Source: an uncultured Staphylococcaceae bacterium (lineage in GTDB: Bacteria; Bacillota_I; Bacilli_A; ML615J-28; CAG-313). Taken from it: DNA of 64,000 nucleotides. Each line of letters begins with the position of its first letter. Position 1 is the stretch's first letter. The notes below the pieces were generated by a model. That model searched no databases. It saw nothing but the letters and a program-made list of their open reading frames with translations, and was not told the origin of the DNA. The stretch covers positions 13,233 to 77,232 of the forward strand of contig CAZDPJ010000002.1 of the NCBI GenBank assembly GCA_964507405.1, written 5' to 3'. Positions 3,488-63,445 of the stretch are shown piece after piece. A program made the position numbers and the translations under genes.

Positions 3488-6400
3488 ATGAGTGAAAAAC
3501 CAATGACTGGTAAAGATGTCGTTAAACGCACCCTTCCTGTGGCTATTGCTTTAGTTTTAATCGTTATTATTGCTATTATCGTAATGTCTGCGAAAAGTTG
3601 TAATAATAAAACTCCAGAACTAAGTAATGGTGATGATACATTTATTGTATTTAAAGGCCAAAATGGTGCGAAAGATTTAACAATATCTAAAGAACGTTTA
3701 TACACTTATATGAAACAACAATATGGTGTTTCTGAATTAATGAGATTAGTTGATAATAAACTTTATGAAGAAGAAATGAATCAAGTTAATCAAGCTGATT
3801 TAGATAAGTATATTGTTGAAAGTGTATTTACATCTAAATCATTAGATGCAACAACAGACTCTGATGCTGTTAAGGAATCTAATAAAAAAGAATTCCAAGA
3901 TATGATTGATTCATTATTAATGAACAATTTACTTAAAAAAGCAGATGTTGATACTGATCCTTATAACACTGCATCTAAAGTTTGGGATGTTTTACGTAAA
4001 TATTATAAATTACAATATGCACGTCGTGAATGGGCTAAAGCTGAATATGGTAGATATTTAGAAGAACAATTAAAAGATTCTACTGATGAGGCAACTTATT
4101 CAAAAATGTTTACAGATGATGATCTAGAAACATATTTTGAAGAAAATTATTCAGGTACTGTTTATGGATTCTTTATTCCATTTACTAGTGAAGCAGCAGC
4201 AAAGAAAGCTATGGCTGAAGTTGGAATTAACACATCTAGTGCTTTATTAGACGATGATGATGGTTGGGTTCGTTCTTCATTTGATTACAATGCTAAAGAC
4301 AATCCAACAGTTCCAGAAGATGCTTATTTAACACCTGCTGAAGTATATAAAGCATTTATTAAAATGTATAATGCTGTATATAGTGGTCAAGGTAAAAGCA
4401 TTAATGAAAGTGTTTATGCTGAAGAAGTTAGTTATTCTAAAACTTTAACTAAACTTGTTAATGCATTAAATACAGCTGTTAAAGATAAAACTGTTGAAGG
4501 AGATGTAGTTCTTCCTCAAACAATTACAGTAACTGGTCAAGAAGCTGCACAAGTAACTTGGGAATTAGGCGAAACTAATGAACATCTTACTTTAGAAAAT
4601 GGTAAAATTTCTTATCATACTGTAGCTACTGCTGATGAAAAATTCACATTAAAAGCAACAATTGAATTTTCTGAAAACAATAAGAAAACAGTATCTTATG
4701 AATTAACAATTAAGAAATTAGAAAACATGGAAGATAAGAAAGCTGAAGAAACTTGGACAGTTGAAGCAGTTGAACCATTTATGCAATTTAAAGTTGAAGT
4801 ATTAGAAACAGAAGCTGTAGATTATACATGGACTAATTCAGAATTAAAAGAAATAAATGATACTCTTGCTACATATATGAAAACTGAATCTACTAAATTA
4901 AAAATTGAAGATGATCCAGCTAAATTTGCTAAATCATATACTGTTAAACCAGTTTCATGTGGTAATTATTATTTCTTAATGATTAAATTTAAAGAAACAG
5001 TAGGTACTAATTTATCTGAAATTAAAGAAGAAGTTGAAAAAGCAAAACTTAATAGTTTATTAGATGGTGAAAGTGGTGAAAACTATATTAACCAAATGAT
5101 TTATAAACGTCGTCAAGATGCTGGTCTTGAAATATATGATCGTTATATTGAAGCTGTTTATGATTATCAATATACTCAATTCTTTGAATCTACATTAAAA
5201 TTAACTGATTATGATAAATTTGAAGATTCTAAGAAAAAAGAACAAGTTAATGTTGCTAAATTCATGGTTGGTGATAACAAAGTAACTATTTCTGCTGATG
5301 AATTATATAGTGAACTTGCGACTAAATATAGTGTTTCAATTTCTGTAGATTTAATTAATCAATATAAACTTGTATCTGATAAAACATTCAATACTATTTA
5401 CAACCCTTATACTGGTGATAAAGATAAAGATAGTTATAGTGAATTATTAACAAGTGAAATTGGTAATTTCCGTAAGAACTTTGAACTGGGATATTTTACA
5501 TATTCTTATCTATCATATTATGGATTCATTCCTAACTTCCCTGCATCATATGGATGGGCTAATTTCAAACAAGATTACTTTGGTGCGTTCACTGATGAAG
5601 AATTATTAATTAATTCATCATTTGGTGGTTCTGCTTATTCAGAAGCATTAAAAGCTTATAAGAAAACTTTATATTCTGATATTACTGCTATTGATGGAGC
5701 AGAAACAACAGATGTTTATAAGAAAATGGAAGAATTATATAATGAATGGTATGGATTAAATGTTGTTAACCTAATTGTTGGTATTGATACTAACTATGAT
5801 GGAACAATGAATCAACAATCAATTAAAGATGAAACTCTTAATACATTTAGTAAGACTGATTGGACAAATGAACAAAAAGATTTAGCTAAAGAATTAATTG
5901 AATTATTTAAAGAATTATTACCTCAAACAGCAAAAACTGGCCCTTATTCTCAACTTGAAGAAATGGTTAAAGTATATAATGAAGCAGGATTAACAGAAGA
6001 AACTGCTGCTCCTACTGCTGAATCTACTATTTATAATTATAATTATTTTGCTAAATACAAGAAAGCTGGTTTAGTATTAAAACTTGAAAAAGCAGCAGAA
6101 TATAATAATAGTTCTTCACTTGTAGAAGAGTTCTTAGATGAATTAGAAGCAATGTATAAAGAAGTTGTTGAAAATGGTGATGAAGGAACTTTTGATGTTG
6201 CTTATGCATCTAAACCAGTTGAAACTATGTATGGATTCCATTTAATCTATGCATTAAATACAACAGAACGTGAAGATCTTCCAGAAGTTAAAGATATCAT
6301 TATTTATAATTTAGTTCAAGATGCTGAAACATATGCTGATTCAACTGTTGATTATAAGATTAAGAAATATGAAGCAGCTGTTGAAGAATTAAAGAAATAT

Positions 6401-58598: not shown

Positions 58599-59606
58599 AT
58601 GTTTAAATATATAATTAAAAGATTGCTGATTTCCATAATAATTTTACTAGGTGTTTCACTTATTATATATTCTCTAGTAAGACTAATGCCAAACAATTAT
58701 GTTGAATCTAAATATGCTGAACAATTATCGCAAGGTACTTTAACTGAAGCAGATATTCAACATTTTAAAGAATTATATGGAATAGGTGATGATTCATTTA
58801 AAGGTATTGTAGGTGGATATTTTAAATGGTTAGGAAATCTTTGTAAAGGTGACTTAGGTACTTCTTTTAAATATGAAAAACCGGTCGCAACAGTTATAAC
58901 AGAAAATATGTGGATTTCATTTGCAATAGCAATAATAGCTACCATCTTACAGTTTTTGATAGCTATTCCGCTGGGGATATCAAGTGCAACCCATCAATAT
59001 TCAATTAGAGATTATACTGTTACTGTGTTTACGATGATTGGTATTTCACTCCCAACATATTTCTTCGCAGCAATAGTAATTAAAATCTTTTCTGTAAATT
59101 TAGGTTGGTTACCTGCTAATGGTTTAATATCTCCAACCGCAAACTACGCAGCAAATTGTGCTGGTTCATTCCAAAAGTTTGGTGATATTTTAAAACACTT
59201 AGTTTTACCTATTTTTGTTAGTGTAATTTTATCAATTGGTGGTTTAATGCGTTATACTAGAACTAATACTTTAGAAGTATTAGGTGCTGATTATATTCGT
59301 ACTGCTCGTGCAAAGGGTTTATCAGAAAATAAAGTTATTTATAAACATGCTTTTAGAAATACAATGATTCCCCTTGTAACATTACTTGCGGGGATACTAC
59401 CTTCATTATTTGGTGGTATGATGATTACCGAAGAAGTATTTTCAATTGATGGAATTGGTCGACTTGCTTATAATGCCCTAATGGAAGGCGATATTCCATT
59501 TGTTATGGGATATAATATGTTTTTAGCAGTTCTTACAGTTATTGGAACACTATTATCTGATTTAATGTATTCAATAGTTGATCCAAGAGTTAAACTTGGA
59601 AAGTAG
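58599..59606 (+). CDS. oppB: Oligopeptide ABC transporter permease (OppB/DppB type)
   Basis: ATG at 58599 follows SD aaaggag. MFKYIIKRLL.. N-terminus. EAA-like loop YIRTARAKGLSE..V..KHAFRN. Confidence 0.9.
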   Translation: MFKYIIKRLLISIIILLGVSLIIYSLVRLMPNNYVESKYAEQLSQGTLTEADIQHFKELYGIGDDSFKGIVGGYFKWLGNLCKGDLGTSFKYEKPVATVITENMWISFAIAIIATILQFLIAIPLGISSATHQYSIRDYTVTVFTMIGISLPTYFFAAIVIKIFSVNLGWLPANGLISPTANYAANCAGSFQKFGDILKHLVLPIFVSVILSIGGLMRYTRTNTLEVLGADYIRTARAKGLSENKVIYKHAFRNTMIPLVTLLAGILPSLFGGMMITEEVFSIDGIGRLAYNALMEGDIPFVMGYNMFLAVLTVIGTLLSDLMYSIVDPRVKLGK

Positions 59607-59873
59607 GTGAGAAGAATGTTGATAGTTTTATTAATATTAATACCTTCTTTAATACTTATTATTACTCCTTTAGTTTTAAAGTTAATAAATGTGATTAAAG
59701 AATATAAAAAAGAAATTAAAAAAATTGAAACTACTGTTGTTAAAAAAGAAGAAATAATAATTAAAAAGAATGTTAATACAAAAGATAAATTATTTATAAA
59801 AATGAAACAAGCAGAAAATGATAATCCCCTAGAGATTAATGTTTCAAAAATAGCAGAAGAAGGAAAGTAGGTG
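59598..59873. repeat. 12-nt direct repeat GGAAAGTAGGTG at 59598-59609 and 59862-59873, bracketing a 264-bp insert
   Basis: Both copies read directly. Each supplies ..GK-stop plus the SD (AGGTG) for the next cistron. Confidence 0.9.
59616..59870 (+). CDS. Micro-protein inserted between oppB and oppC (84 aa: one TM helix + Lys/Glu/Ile-rich tail)
   Basis: ATG 5-6 nt after AGGTGA. MLIVLLILIPSLILIITPLVL then KEYKKEIKKIETTVVKKEEIIIKK... Confidence 0.5.
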   Translation: MLIVLLILIPSLILIITPLVLKLINVIKEYKKEIKKIETTVVKKEEIIIKKNVNTKDKLFIKMKQAENDNPLEINVSKIAEEGK

Positions 59874-59879
59874 TAATGA

Positions 59880-60953
59880 ATGGAAACAGAAAACAATAAT
59901 CTAAATGAAAATCCTACGCTTACTGATGAGGTTAATACAGAATCAATAGAAGAAACTTATAAAGAAATGAGTCCAATACGACTTGTACTTAGAAGATTCT
60001 TTCGTTCTAAATTATCAATTGTGGGAATTGTAATGATTGTCTTCTTATTCTTATTTTCTTTCTTAGGCCCGGTTATTTATTCTAAATGGGGTGAAGAAGA
60101 AGTTGATAGAAGTACAGTATATAAAGAAACTTCAGAAATGATTACTTATGTTGATGAAAATGGTGTTGAACAAATTGTTCAAGAAGTTGTCACAATTGAA
60201 CATTCATATAATCAATATGCAAGTCCTAGTAAAGACCATTTACTTGGAACTGACGAACATGGAATGGATGTCTTTACACGATTAATGTATGGTGGTAGAA
60301 TCTCACTTGCAATTGGTTTTATTGTTGTAATTTTAGAAACTATAATTGGTATAATTCTTGGTAGCATTGCTGGATATTGTGGCGGATGGGTTGACCAAAT
60401 TATAATGCGAATAGTTGATATATTTAACTGTATACCAACTTTACCTATCTTACTTATTGCCTCAGCCATCATTGATGCTAGGTTCAATGTTGAAATGGGA
60501 ACCGCAATAAGTTCTACACAAAGAATATATATTTTAATGGTAATAATTACAATATTTAGTTGGAGTGGTGTTGCAAGACTTGTTCGTGGTCAAATTCTTG
60601 CTTTAAGAGAACAAGAATATATTACCGCAACAGAAGTTATGGGTCTTCCAACATGGCGTAAAATATTAAAACATTTAGTTCCAAATGTAATGCCTCAATT
60701 AATAGTTTCAATGACACTTGGTTTAGGTAGTGTAATTTTATATGAATCAACACTTAGTTATTTAGGTCTTGGTGTTCAACTTCCTAAAGCAGCATGGGGT
60801 ACAATGATTGCCGCATCTAAAACAAGAGAAGTACTTCAATATCATACTAATGTGTGGTTACCTGCGGGTATTATGATTGTTATTGCGGTACTTGGATTCA
60901 ACTTCCTTGGTGACAGTCTAAGAGATGCGATGGATCCAAAGGCGAAGAAGTAG
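59880..60953 (+). CDS. oppC: Oligopeptide ABC transporter permease (OppC/DppC type)
   Basis: Long N-terminal region, HLLGTDEHGMDVFTR motif, EAA-like loop YITATEVMGLPTWRKILKH. Confidence 0.9.
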   Translation: METENNNLNENPTLTDEVNTESIEETYKEMSPIRLVLRRFFRSKLSIVGIVMIVFLFLFSFLGPVIYSKWGEEEVDRSTVYKETSEMITYVDENGVEQIVQEVVTIEHSYNQYASPSKDHLLGTDEHGMDVFTRLMYGGRISLAIGFIVVILETIIGIILGSIAGYCGGWVDQIIMRIVDIFNCIPTLPILLIASAIIDARFNVEMGTAISSTQRIYILMVIITIFSWSGVARLVRGQILALREQEYITATEVMGLPTWRKILKHLVPNVMPQLIVSMTLGLGSVILYESTLSYLGLGVQLPKAAWGTMIAASKTREVLQYHTNVWLPAGIMIVIAVLGFNFLGDSLRDAMDPKAKK

Positions 60954-60962
60954 GTGGTTTAT

Positions 60963-62141
60963 ATGAAAGAAACTAAAAAATCTTCAAATTATATTACAAT
61001 AAAAGAAAGTAGAAAGATTATTAAGTATAACATTAAACAAATGAAGTATTATGAATCACTTAAAAAACAAAATAAAACTGTTGATGAATATACTTCCATT
61101 ATGAAAGATGAAAATAATTTAATTGAAATCGATAATCTTAAGACTTGTTTCTTTACTGATAATGGTACAGTTATGAGTGTTAATGGCGTATCCTTTAACA
61201 TTCCTAAAAATAAAATAATTGGTGTGGTAGGTGAATCTGGTTGTGGTAAAAGCGTTACTTCTCTTTCTATAATGCAATTAGTTCAAGCCCCTCAAGGCCA
61301 AGTTATTGATGGTGAAATTAGATATAATACAGATGATCTTGGACGAAATAATCTTAATCAAAAACTTGCGTATGATATAACTAAAATGCCAACCAAAGAA
61401 ATGTATAAAATTCGTGGTAAAGATATTACAATGATTTTCCAAGAACCTATGACTAGTTTAAATCCTGTATTTACAATTGGTTATCAATTAGATGAAGTAT
61501 CATTTATTCATACTCCGTCAATCACAAAAGAAGAAGCTAAACAACATAGTATTGAAATGTTAAAAAAAGTTGGTATTTCAATGCCAGAACATGTATATAA
61601 ATCATATCCTCATGAATTATCAGGAGGTATGAGACAAAGAGTAATGATTGCAATGGCTTTAGTCGGAAATCCTAAATTAATTATTGCTGATGAACCTACA
61701 ACTGCACTTGATGTTACTATTCAAGCTCAAATCCTAGAATTATTAAAAGAATTACAAAAAGAACAAGGTTGTTCAATTATGTTAATTACTCATGACCTTG
61801 GTGTTATTGCGGAGATGGCAGATGAAGTTGTAGTTATGTATGCTGGACGTGTAATTGAAAAAGGAACTGCTCATGAAATATTCCATAATCCATTACATCC
61901 TTATACAATTGGATTACAAAAGTCTAAACCTTTAATTACTTCAAGTTCAACAGAACCTTTATATTCAATACCTGGTCAAGTACCTAATCCAATTAATTTA
62001 CCTAATACTTGTTACTTTAAAAATAGATGTAATAAATGTATTAATAAATGTAATAATGATTATCCATATGAAATTAAAGTTAGTGATACTCATTATGTAT
62101 CTTGTTATTTATATAGTGAGGAGGTAAAAGAAAATGAATAA
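60963..62141 (+). CDS. oppD: Oligopeptide ABC transporter ATPase OppD with a Lys-rich N-terminal extension
   Basis: ATG at 60963 follows SD aggtgg. Walker A GESGCGKS, signature LSGGMRQR, Walker B IADEPTTALD, C-terminal Cys cluster. Confidence 0.9.
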   Translation: MKETKKSSNYITIKESRKIIKYNIKQMKYYESLKKQNKTVDEYTSIMKDENNLIEIDNLKTCFFTDNGTVMSVNGVSFNIPKNKIIGVVGESGCGKSVTSLSIMQLVQAPQGQVIDGEIRYNTDDLGRNNLNQKLAYDITKMPTKEMYKIRGKDITMIFQEPMTSLNPVFTIGYQLDEVSFIHTPSITKEEAKQHSIEMLKKVGISMPEHVYKSYPHELSGGMRQRVMIAMALVGNPKLIIADEPTTALDVTIQAQILELLKELQKEQGCSIMLITHDLGVIAEMADEVVVMYAGRVIEKGTAHEIFHNPLHPYTIGLQKSKPLITSSSTEPLYSIPGQVPNPINLPNTCYFKNRCNKCINKCNNDYPYEIKVSDTHYVSCYLYSEEVKENE

Positions 62142-63237
62142 TCCTGAAAATAAACAGTTTGATACTCCTCAAACTACCAAGATGCTTGAAGTTAAAAATT
62201 TAAAGAAATATTTTCCATTAAATAAAAACTTTTTTGGAAAAGCACAATCTTATTTAAAAGCTGTTGATAATATTACTTTTGATGTTGAAAAAGGACAAAC
62301 AATTGGAATTGTTGGTGAATCAGGATGTGGCAAAACAACCCTTGGTCGTACAATTCTAAAGTTATATGAAAGTGACGGCGGACAAATAATTTTTAATGGT
62401 ATTGATATAACTGATATTAAGAAAAAACAAATGCGAAAATATCGTACCGATATTCAGTTAATATTCCAAGACCCTTATTCTAGTTTACCACCTAGAATGA
62501 CGGTTGGAAGTATTATTGCTGAAGCTGTTAAAGTACATAAGATTGTACCTAAAGAAAAAGTAAGAGAATATGTTTACGATATTATGAAAAAATGTGGTTT
62601 ACAACCTCAATATTATGATCGTTATCCTCATGAATTTTCTGGTGGTCAACGTCAAAGAATTTGTATAGCAAGAGCGCTTGCGGTTAAACCTAAACTTGTT
62701 ATATGTGATGAACCTGTTAGCGCCCTAGATGTATCAATTCAAGCCCAAATTATAAATTTATTAAAAGAATTACAACAAACAATGGGATTTACTTATGTCT
62801 TTATATCTCATGATTTATCGGTTGTTAAATATATTACTGATAAGATTTTAGTTATGTATTTAGGAAATACAATGGAACTTGGGAAAACTGATGAAATATT
62901 TGATAATCCTTTACATCCTTATACTAAGGCTTTGTTCTCAGCTGTACCTGTTCCAGATCCTGATATAAAAATGCAAAGAATTATTTTAAAAGGCGATATT
63001 CCATCACCTGCTAATCCTCCAAAGGGATGTAAATTCCATACAAGATGTTCAGAATGCATGAATGTATGTAAGTATAAGAATCCTGAATATATAGAAGCTA
63101 AACCTGATCATTTTGTTGCTTGTCATTTATATAATTCAGAAATAATGAATAATTTAGATTATTATAATGAAGAGTATGAAAGATTAGAGAAAGAATCAAA
63201 AGAAAAAGAAAAAGAAAATGAAAAAGAAAAAAGATAA
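62134..63237 (+). CDS. oppF: Oligopeptide ABC transporter ATPase OppF with a KEKEKENEKEK tail
   Basis: Walker A GESGCGKTT, signature FSGGQRQR, Walker B ICDEPVSALD, C-terminal CKFHTRC..C motif. Overlaps oppD by 8 nt. Confidence 0.92.
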   Translation: MNNPENKQFDTPQTTKMLEVKNLKKYFPLNKNFFGKAQSYLKAVDNITFDVEKGQTIGIVGESGCGKTTLGRTILKLYESDGGQIIFNGIDITDIKKKQMRKYRTDIQLIFQDPYSSLPPRMTVGSIIAEAVKVHKIVPKEKVREYVYDIMKKCGLQPQYYDRYPHEFSGGQRQRICIARALAVKPKLVICDEPVSALDVSIQAQIINLLKELQQTMGFTYVFISHDLSVVKYITDKILVMYLGNTMELGKTDEIFDNPLHPYTKALFSAVPVPDPDIKMQRIILKGDIPSPANPPKGCKFHTRCSECMNVCKYKNPEYIEAKPDHFVACHLYNSEIMNNLDYYNEEYERLEKESKEKEKENEKEKR

Positions 63238-63445
63238 ATATATTGATGATGGCCATACGATTTACAATATGGATGTTGATGGTATGCCACATAGAAGAGT
63301 TCATAAAAATGATGGAATAGAATTAACAAAAAAAGAAAGAAGAGCTTTACAGTTAGCCGCATTACTTCATTATTTACCAATATTATTTGGAGTAATACTT
63401 TGTTTTACAATTGCTATTTTATTAATATTTTTATGGCTTAAATAA
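63218..63445 (+). CDS. Small tail-anchored membrane protein (75 aa)
   Basis: Overlaps the oppF 3' end by 20 nt. Basic N-terminus and C-terminal TM helix LPILFGVILCFTIAILLIFLWL. SD weak. Confidence 0.45.
   Translation: MKKKKDKYIDDGHTIYNMDVDGMPHRRVHKNDGIELTKKERRALQLAALLHYLPILFGVILCFTIAILLIFLWLK

Follow-up and report, generated by a model that had tools for sequence, protein, structure and literature searches.

A 264-nucleotide insertion bounded by junction repeats between oppB and oppC, and its predicted membrane micro-protein, in an uncultured Bacilli lineage

We analyzed a 64,000-nucleotide stretch of DNA (the window) from an uncultured Staphylococcaceae bacterium (contig CAZDPJ010000002.1 of assembly GCA_964507405.1), which contains an opp transporter operon with the layout oppA-oppB-micro-ORF-oppC-oppD-oppF. 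The micro-ORF is an open reading frame (ORF) of 84 codons lying between the permease genes oppB and oppC and bounded by the two copies of a 12-nucleotide (nt) direct repeat; we confirmed both the repeat and the intervening ORF. Alignment with related genomes shows that a 264-nt, in-frame, AT-rich segment was inserted at the ancestral oppB–oppC junction, evidently creating a new cistron. The same comparison shows duplication of the Gly-Lys codons, TAG stop, and AGGTG Shine-Dalgarno (SD) sequence of the junction, and the duplicated unit probably also takes in the spacer and the ATG.

Our favored reading, to which we assign a probability of about 0.55, is that the micro-protein is an insertion-born, young or weakly selected, and dispensable free-standing transmembrane (TM) helix of OppBC, here called TM0, and perhaps largely a tolerated passenger. 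The role of tolerated passenger appears nearly as likely as that of a free extra helix. All features below are on the + strand and in window coordinates.

Junction repeat

An earlier note on this DNA, made from its letters alone, had described a 12-nt direct repeat with copies 264 nt apart, each providing Gly-Lys codons, a stop, and an AGGTG SD. Matching against the window and the genome bears out this description. The first copy (J1, 59598–59609, GGAAAGTAGGTG) contains the Gly-Lys codons and TAG stop (59604–59606) of oppB, followed by AGGTG. The second copy (J2, 59862–59873, again GGAAAGTAGGTG) contains the Gly-Lys codons and TAG stop (59868–59870) of the micro-ORF, along with the SD for oppC. 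Both stops are in frame, and the spacing from J1 to J2 corresponds to 88 codons. In each copy AGGTG sits 6 nt ahead of the next ATG (59616 for the micro-ORF and 59880 for oppC), and the similarity between the junctions reaches 21 nt (18/21 identity), taking in the ATG at equal offset. Even with one mismatch allowed, GGAAAGTAGGTG has only these two matches in the window. Two exact copies are likewise all that occur genome-wide (1,511,693 bp, 28.4% GC), the genome being a metagenome-assembled genome (MAG) of 1.51 Mb that is 86% complete.

The segment that is missing from the sister lineage (59610–59873, 264 nt) was delimited by alignment of relatives and by composition. Its boundaries are ambiguous within the repeat, and 59598–59861 fits equally well. 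Downstream of J2, the spacer of the window strain (59874–59879) is TAATGA, such that the micro-ORF and oppC are separated by TAG GTG TAA TGA, in frame. J2 is kept in the related MAG GCA_964653035.1, with the spacer CAATTA (positions 4259–4264 of locus L047), and a single TAG parts the micro-ORF from oppC. Read-through fusion is thus blocked three times in the window strain and once in GCA_964653035.1.

A shorter form of the junction had also been said to recur between oppC and oppD, and it does so at 60948–60956 (AAGTAGGTG), with the same idiom of a stop inside an SD and with the oppD ATG at 60963.

Empty, split, and fused states in relatives

A word-indexed search across 5.8 billion proteins gave three hits, each 84 amino acids in length and all at the oppB–oppC locus, one of them being the window's own protein. 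A variant with one residue changed occurs in contigs of SRR22923248, SRR22923249, and SRR20681284, and a variant with 10 residues changed occurs in the NCBI MAG GCA_964653035.1 and in SRR19576309. The oppB-micro-ORF-oppC layout with both junction copies is present in GCA_964653035.1 (about 96% nucleotide identity) and in four Sequence Read Archive assemblies, and the 84-amino acid gene is also called in independent assemblies. Protein, GTDB, and JGI searches confine the protein to one species-level cluster.

The closest OppC beyond the window species (P0005; 87% identity, 357 amino acids) is encoded on contigs of SRR10277268 and SRR10277269, and here the site is empty, with oppB (...GGAAAGTAGGTGAAAAAAATGGAAAAT...) leading directly into oppC through one junction. 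The N-terminus of this OppC (MENENKNLVETPN..) is homologous to that of the window OppC (METENNNLNENPT..), which is likewise homologous to the unextended OppC start of outgroups. In the alignment, this sister lineage and one outgroup lack exactly the 264 nt, that is, one repeat copy plus the intervening DNA. The empty state is also found in G005, G064, P0016, and other genera without an OppC extension. The suggestion that removing one copy and the intervening DNA would give a normal junction therefore has natural counterparts in the SRR10277268/SRR10277269 lineage and the outgroups, and comparison of related operons revealed presence and absence of the 264 nt, not a homologous gene conserved in all of them. 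In most related genomes oppB ends in GGAAAGTAGGTG or a variant differing by 1–2 nt, and OppC typically starts 4–6 nt later. Because this oppB end is conserved across the family, J1 is taken to be the ancestral copy.

Trees were built from OppB together with the OppC core and from the OppC core alone, and both agree on the following groupings. The window and GCA_964653035.1 (both split, i.e., with a separate micro-ORF) cluster with P0005 (empty) with support of 100/100. This group is sister (82/84) to a clade in which a TM helix is fused to OppC (G001/G002/G006 and P0006–P0014; 100/99). G005, G064, and P0016, all empty, branch outside, and G004 (fused, short) falls elsewhere with G046a and G047. 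The junction, the ATG, and an ME.E.. N-terminus are common to the window, the empty sister, and the outgroups, and are about equally far from the invariant TYKEMSP motif of OppC. As the sister and outgroups retain the plain junction and start, the window state is best read as an insertion into an ancestral junction and not as the fission of a longer gene.

In four genomes of the same genus, the OppC frames are 391–459 amino acids long and have an N-terminal TM helix and charged linker fused to them (e.g., MILSILLPTITILLVVIICGFIITNKKGTKK...). Such a fused helix and linker occurs in G001, G002, G006, and P0006–P0014, and also in G004, G046a, and P0052; in the more distant G046b paralogue a TM helix is likewise fused to OppC. 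The extensions begin directly after the oppB stop and SD with a Met, followed by a hydrophobic helix often containing ILLP or ILIP, a Lys-rich part, and an acidic or mixed linker. There is no stop, SD, or ATG at the boundary with OppC, and in the fused clade the Met at the corresponding position has been lost. The length added in the fused sister clade is ~75–80 codons, as compared with 88 in the window. Since related operons carry a similar helix and linker at the same site, the micro-protein is, judged by its architecture, the free-standing form of a recurrent OppC appendage.

Two histories of the free and fused forms remain. In the first, a single old insertion of a separate cistron was later fused in the sister clade and excised between the repeats in the P0005 lineage. 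This history calls for three events, each of them easy in mechanistic terms. In its favor, the free and fused forms agree in site and build and in the similar length added, the Pro of TM0 is at an aligned position in several clades, and near-neutral evolution makes a loss of similarity expected. In the second, separate insertions took place in the window clade and in the fused clade, which needs two events. The junction repeat is still perfect, and the similarity of the micro-protein to the sister-clade extensions falls within that of architecture-preserving shuffles (z -1.0 to 0.8). In pairwise comparison the micro-protein is most similar to the extension of G046a (z=2.9, p=0.01), the only similarity above shuffles and a marginal one.

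We also looked for a vestige of J2 within the fused extensions. In G001 (locus L016, contig G001:C118), at extension codons of about 26–30 and just after the TM helix, GGAAATTAGGTG matches the junction at 11 of 12 positions. It is in a different frame (encoding ..GKLGG..), has a shuffle p of 0.006 before correction for six tests, and has no counterpart in G002 or G006. Chance could account for the match, or it may be the vestige of an internal junction. As a J2 vestige the candidate was rejected, as nothing significant was found in G002 or G006 and the G001 match lies at a different place.

More generally, the OppC segment before TYKEMSP ranges from 15 to about 128 residues (P0004–P0123; loci L013–L046). 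Some OppC N-termini are lengthened by acidic low-complexity stretches that contain no TM helix (77 residues in P0027, for example), and others carry TM helices. The N-terminal end of OppC thus appears to be a hotspot of length change.

Micro-ORF and its predicted product

The micro-ORF (59616–59870) encodes 84 amino acids in frame with oppC, starting with MLIVLLILIPSLILIITPLVLKLI, which includes the predicted TM helix, and continuing with a Lys/Glu/Ile-rich helical tail that ends in ..AEEGK-TAG. This agrees with the earlier description of one TM helix and a Lys/Glu/Ile-rich tail, as judged by hydropathy, composition, and AlphaFold2 prediction. The predicted helix spans residues 2–24 (59619–59687), which are strongly hydrophobic, with a Kyte-Doolittle value of 2.9 across residues 1–19. 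The DNA encoding it is 52% T and 16% G+C. The tail has 15 Lys, 9 Glu, and 9 Ile among its 60 residues and is encoded by DNA that is 56% A. An AlphaFold2 model from the single sequence has helices at residues 2–69 and 71–82 (mean predicted local distance difference test score, pLDDT, 84). Basic residues mark the cytoplasmic side of a TM helix (the positive-inside rule). The micro-protein has no basic residue before its hydrophobic stretch and has lysines after it, which by this rule suggests an anchor with the N-terminus outside and the C-terminus inside.

Searches of Pfam, NCBIfam, PDB, and Rfam with the micro-protein or the insert yielded nothing significant. By sequence, with no Pfam or NCBIfam match above cut-off, the micro-protein does not qualify as a permease fragment. 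We found no known RNA element in the insert, and no promoter or terminator signals there above those of shuffles.

Source of the inserted DNA

The 252 nt between the repeats have a GC content of 18.7%, as compared with 31–33% for oppB and oppC and 28.4% for the genome. Very rapid drift, or an origin in AT-rich non-genic DNA, would fit such a composition. When 1.84 billion representative proteins were searched exhaustively with HMMER, only the micro-protein's own cluster and one spurious repeat protein were recovered, and the micro-protein had no match in scans of JGI metagenomes or of GTDB species representatives. By these searches the micro-protein is an orphan, with no homologue detected outside a narrow lineage. 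Neither a second copy nor donor DNA was found in its own genome or in 40 relatives, where only short low-complexity matches were seen. The search for a source of the 84-amino acid sequence, which had been proposed at the outset, accordingly yielded no donor in any of these collections. The syntenic site did not provide a homologous non-coding ancestor, the sister site being empty.

Two specific sources were considered and rejected. For a tandem duplication of adjacent DNA, the in-register identity was 0.337 and 0.329, as compared with a mean of 0.328 at other in-frame offsets, and local protein alignments to OppB (p=0.69) and OppC (p=0.79) were not significant; an old, fully diverged tandem duplication may nevertheless be the source. 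For a mobile element of the insertion sequence or miniature inverted-repeat transposable element type, there were no terminal inverted repeats and no extra copy in the genome or the 40 relatives.

Proposed role and alternative explanations

In the sequence as it stands, the upstream junction copy ends oppB and opens the 84-codon cistron, and the downstream copy ends this cistron and opens oppC. oppC retains the ancestral initiation context, and the micro-ORF has taken over the one formerly used by oppC. Duplication of the junction module thus makes the new cistron seamless and leaves translational coupling along oppB, the micro-ORF, oppC, and oppD intact. In the favored reading, the micro-protein should be produced at levels close to those of OppB and OppC. 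The product would be a bitopic membrane protein, with its N-terminus outside, a TM segment at residues 2–24, and a cytoplasmic helical tail that is first Lys-rich and then of mixed charge. Because the fused forms join a like helix and a charged, disordered linker to the cytoplasmic N-terminus of OppC, the micro-protein would, by analogy, most likely lie beside OppBC in the membrane as an additional helix that is not covalently attached. Its exact sequence would then be of no consequence, and what counts would be its overall character: a hydrophobic helix with a Pro around position 10, and a charged tail. The window may either keep the form that gave rise to the fused extensions or represent an independent insertion of the same kind.

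Several observations weigh against this reading. Between the window and GCA_964653035.1, dN/dS is 1.47 for the micro-ORF (12 nonsynonymous and 2 synonymous substitutions), as compared with 0.14 for oppA, 0.01 for oppB, 0.03 for oppC, 0.03 for oppD, and 0.04 for oppF. This 12:2 split is just what neutrality predicts (binomial p=1.0) and sets the micro-ORF apart from the opp genes (p=5e-7). The chance of zero stops arising over 14 neutral substitutions is 0.30–0.42, which makes the intact frame uninformative. The fused extensions of the sister clade are likewise under weak constraint (omega 0.4–0.8, versus 0.01–0.14 for the core), and the near-neutral amino acid evolution of the micro-protein makes a specific function harder to argue for. 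That the sister lineage manages without the micro-ORF indicates that it is dispensable. In G047 (locus L044, contig G047:C2), GGAAAGTAGGTC is followed by a 20-codon ORF, MRKILNLSLILEQDEANDYE, which overlaps a new OppC start, ATGAATAG, preceded by GAGG, and the OppC N-terminus there (..YIIRNKKSKDTIRVSIRNVK..) is like the fused-extension linker of its sisters G004 and G046a. The arrangement has the appearance of a TM extension that decayed, with re-initiation at OppC, and likewise points to dispensability.

Further points concern homology, structure, and the repeat itself. The micro-protein has no sequence homology to the fused extension of the sister clade above architecture-preserving shuffles. 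A model of a fused OppC (P0009, from a 36-sequence alignment) has a mean pLDDT of 54, with TM0 at 72–81 and the linker around 30, and because of this low overall value the packing of TM0 is not readable from the model. Translation, membrane insertion, and association with OppBC are predictions from sequence. Lastly, exact 12-mers recurring over distances of up to 600 nt are frequent in this AT-rich genome (1,343 merged pairs), and the 12-mer repeat taken alone is therefore weak evidence; it is strengthened by the shared upstream 6-mer and by the indel of one repeat period, both described below.

The alternative that survives best is that the peptide has no function and the micro-ORF is a neutral passenger or coupling relay, its frame being open so that ribosomes reach J2 or because the insertion is young. 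We regard this as a possible but less probable explanation. The neutral dN/dS, the orphan status, the extreme composition, and the absence of the micro-ORF from the sister all agree with it, as does the conservation of J2 next to a variable spacer. However, the T-rich hydrophobic character and Pro position of TM0 persist in diverged clades, for which mutation bias alone would be insufficient. The substitutions are also clustered, with 13 of the 14 falling within 59665–59773 and the first 49 nt and last 97 nt nearly invariant, and oppC has its own strong SD and may not need a relay.

A more far-reaching proposal, which we put forward tentatively and consider less likely than not, is that a TM0 cassette bounded by the junction copies toggles between absence, a separate micro-protein, and a helix fused to OppC. 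Absence would come about through recombination between the repeats, and fusion through loss of the downstream stop, which in GCA_964653035.1 is a single TAG. If this were true, the window would hold an intermediate, a micro-ORF, on the way to the gain of a helix by a polytopic membrane protein.

It is improbable that no duplication occurred and that the two 12-mers are alike by convergence on a stop inside a strong SD, the ORF having grown in some other way. Junctions with a TAG stop embedded in TAGGTG and an ATG after it do number 17 genome-wide, including oppC–oppD, the preceding codon is often Lys, and chance 12-mer repeats over such distances are, as noted, not rare. Nevertheless, among the 136 pairs of these junctions only the oppB–oppC pair has a common upstream 6-mer, the other 135 sharing none, and the 12-mer itself has no further copy in the genome. 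The length difference from the sister lineage amounts to exactly one repeat period, and without the insert oppB and oppC lie just 9 nt apart, with no intergenic DNA between them for an ORF to grow from. A variant of this explanation, convergence through an extended SD (GAAAGGAGGTG), was rejected, as GGAAAG is not present at the other stop-in-SD junctions and GAAAGGAGGTG does not occur in the genome; a 16S gene, sought for its anti-SD sequence, was not found in the MAG.

Least probable is gene fission, in which a fused ancestral OppC was split by a patch of the oppB junction (micro-conversion) that added a stop, SD, and start: this was first suggested by the 391–459-amino acid OppC frames of congeners, and it fits the in-frame position of the micro-ORF, the lone TAG before oppC in GCA_964653035.1, and the similar total length of the sister-clade extension (110–127 amino acids, versus 84+4+25 codons), but it was dropped on account of the sister's empty site and the ancestral start, the nearest sister and all outgroups having a plain junction followed by the ATG and a homologous ME.E.. 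N-terminus, whereas a fused ancestor would demand exact re-creation of the start twice and the fused clade has no Met there.

Flanking genes

oppB (58599–59606) encodes 335 amino acids from the ATG at 58599, ends in ..VKLGK-TAG inside J1, and matches PF00528 (E=9e-34). Its start is in keeping with homologues, which begin with MFKYIIKRL, and with the L047 gene call, also of 335 amino acids. oppC (59880–60953) encodes 357 amino acids and matches PF12911 and PF00528. The matches of the two proteins to the BPD_transp_1 and OppC_N profiles are at E of about 1e-33.

At the downstream end of the operon, a 75-amino acid ORF (63218–63445) overlaps the 3' end of oppF, and its product has a TM helix at the C-terminus. 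GCA_964653035.1 and the SRR10277268 lineage both carry this ORF intact. It has a dN/dS of 0.07 between the window and GCA_964653035.1, and has no Pfam or NCBIfam match. Unlike the 84-amino acid ORF, it looks like a constrained, genuine small membrane protein gene of the opp operon.

A cluster of four Cys residues is present in the C-terminal part of OppD (..CYFKNRCNKCINKC..; 61950–62141) and of OppF (..CKFHTRCSECMNVC..; 63000–63120). C-terminal domains that bind Fe-S clusters have been reported for some Opp/Dpp ATPases.

Comparison with known systems

Should the free and fused forms have a common origin, this locus would be a natural example of a permease gaining a TM helix by way of a micro-ORF intermediate, and stop-inside-SD junctions would let new cistrons enter operons with downstream expression undisturbed. 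The practical weight is limited, as the lineage is one of uncultured, very AT-rich Bacilli represented by MAGs and the peptide bears no sign of strong selection.

KdpF (of KdpFABC), CydX (of CydABX), and AcrZ (with AcrB) are small single-TM subunits of transporters and respiratory complexes, encoded in the operons of their partners and conserved across species, with binding or phenotypes shown. The micro-protein resembles them in being shorter than 100 amino acids, in having one TM helix, and in being encoded inside a transporter operon, where it is coupled by stop-in-SD junctions on both sides. It differs from them in being limited to one species-level cluster and near-neutral, and thus not conserved under purifying selection. 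A literature search found neither a micro-protein described between oppB and oppC nor such an Opp subunit. The micro-protein also resembles the fused OppC extensions, which have the same site, directly after the oppB stop and SD, and the same build; these are, however, joined to OppC, and apart from a marginal excess for G046a they are no more similar to it in sequence than shuffles are.

As regards origin, the insert shares features with two kinds of event. A 12-nt (up to 21-nt) direct repeat bounds it and a one-copy empty site exists, as with target-site duplication by mobile elements or templated insertion flanked by microhomology. The junction repeat is, however, longer than typical target-site duplications, and unlike a mobile element the insert lacks terminal inverted repeats and a transposase and is not found a second time in the genome or in 40 relatives. 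Orphan and de novo membrane proteins arising from T-rich sequence, as outlined by Vakirlis et al. 2020 (PMC7005711), offer the other comparison. Measured against that outline, the micro-protein is similar in being an orphan, in having a TM segment encoded by 52% T, in its very low GC content, and in its near-neutral evolution, and it differs in having arisen by insertion into a 9-nt junction and not from an in-situ non-coding ancestor.

Transporter operons with small membrane proteins, orphan genes, and domain accretion are all known already. What is rare is that an empty site, a free-standing cistron, and a fused helix are all found at one site in close relatives, with the junction duplication intact.

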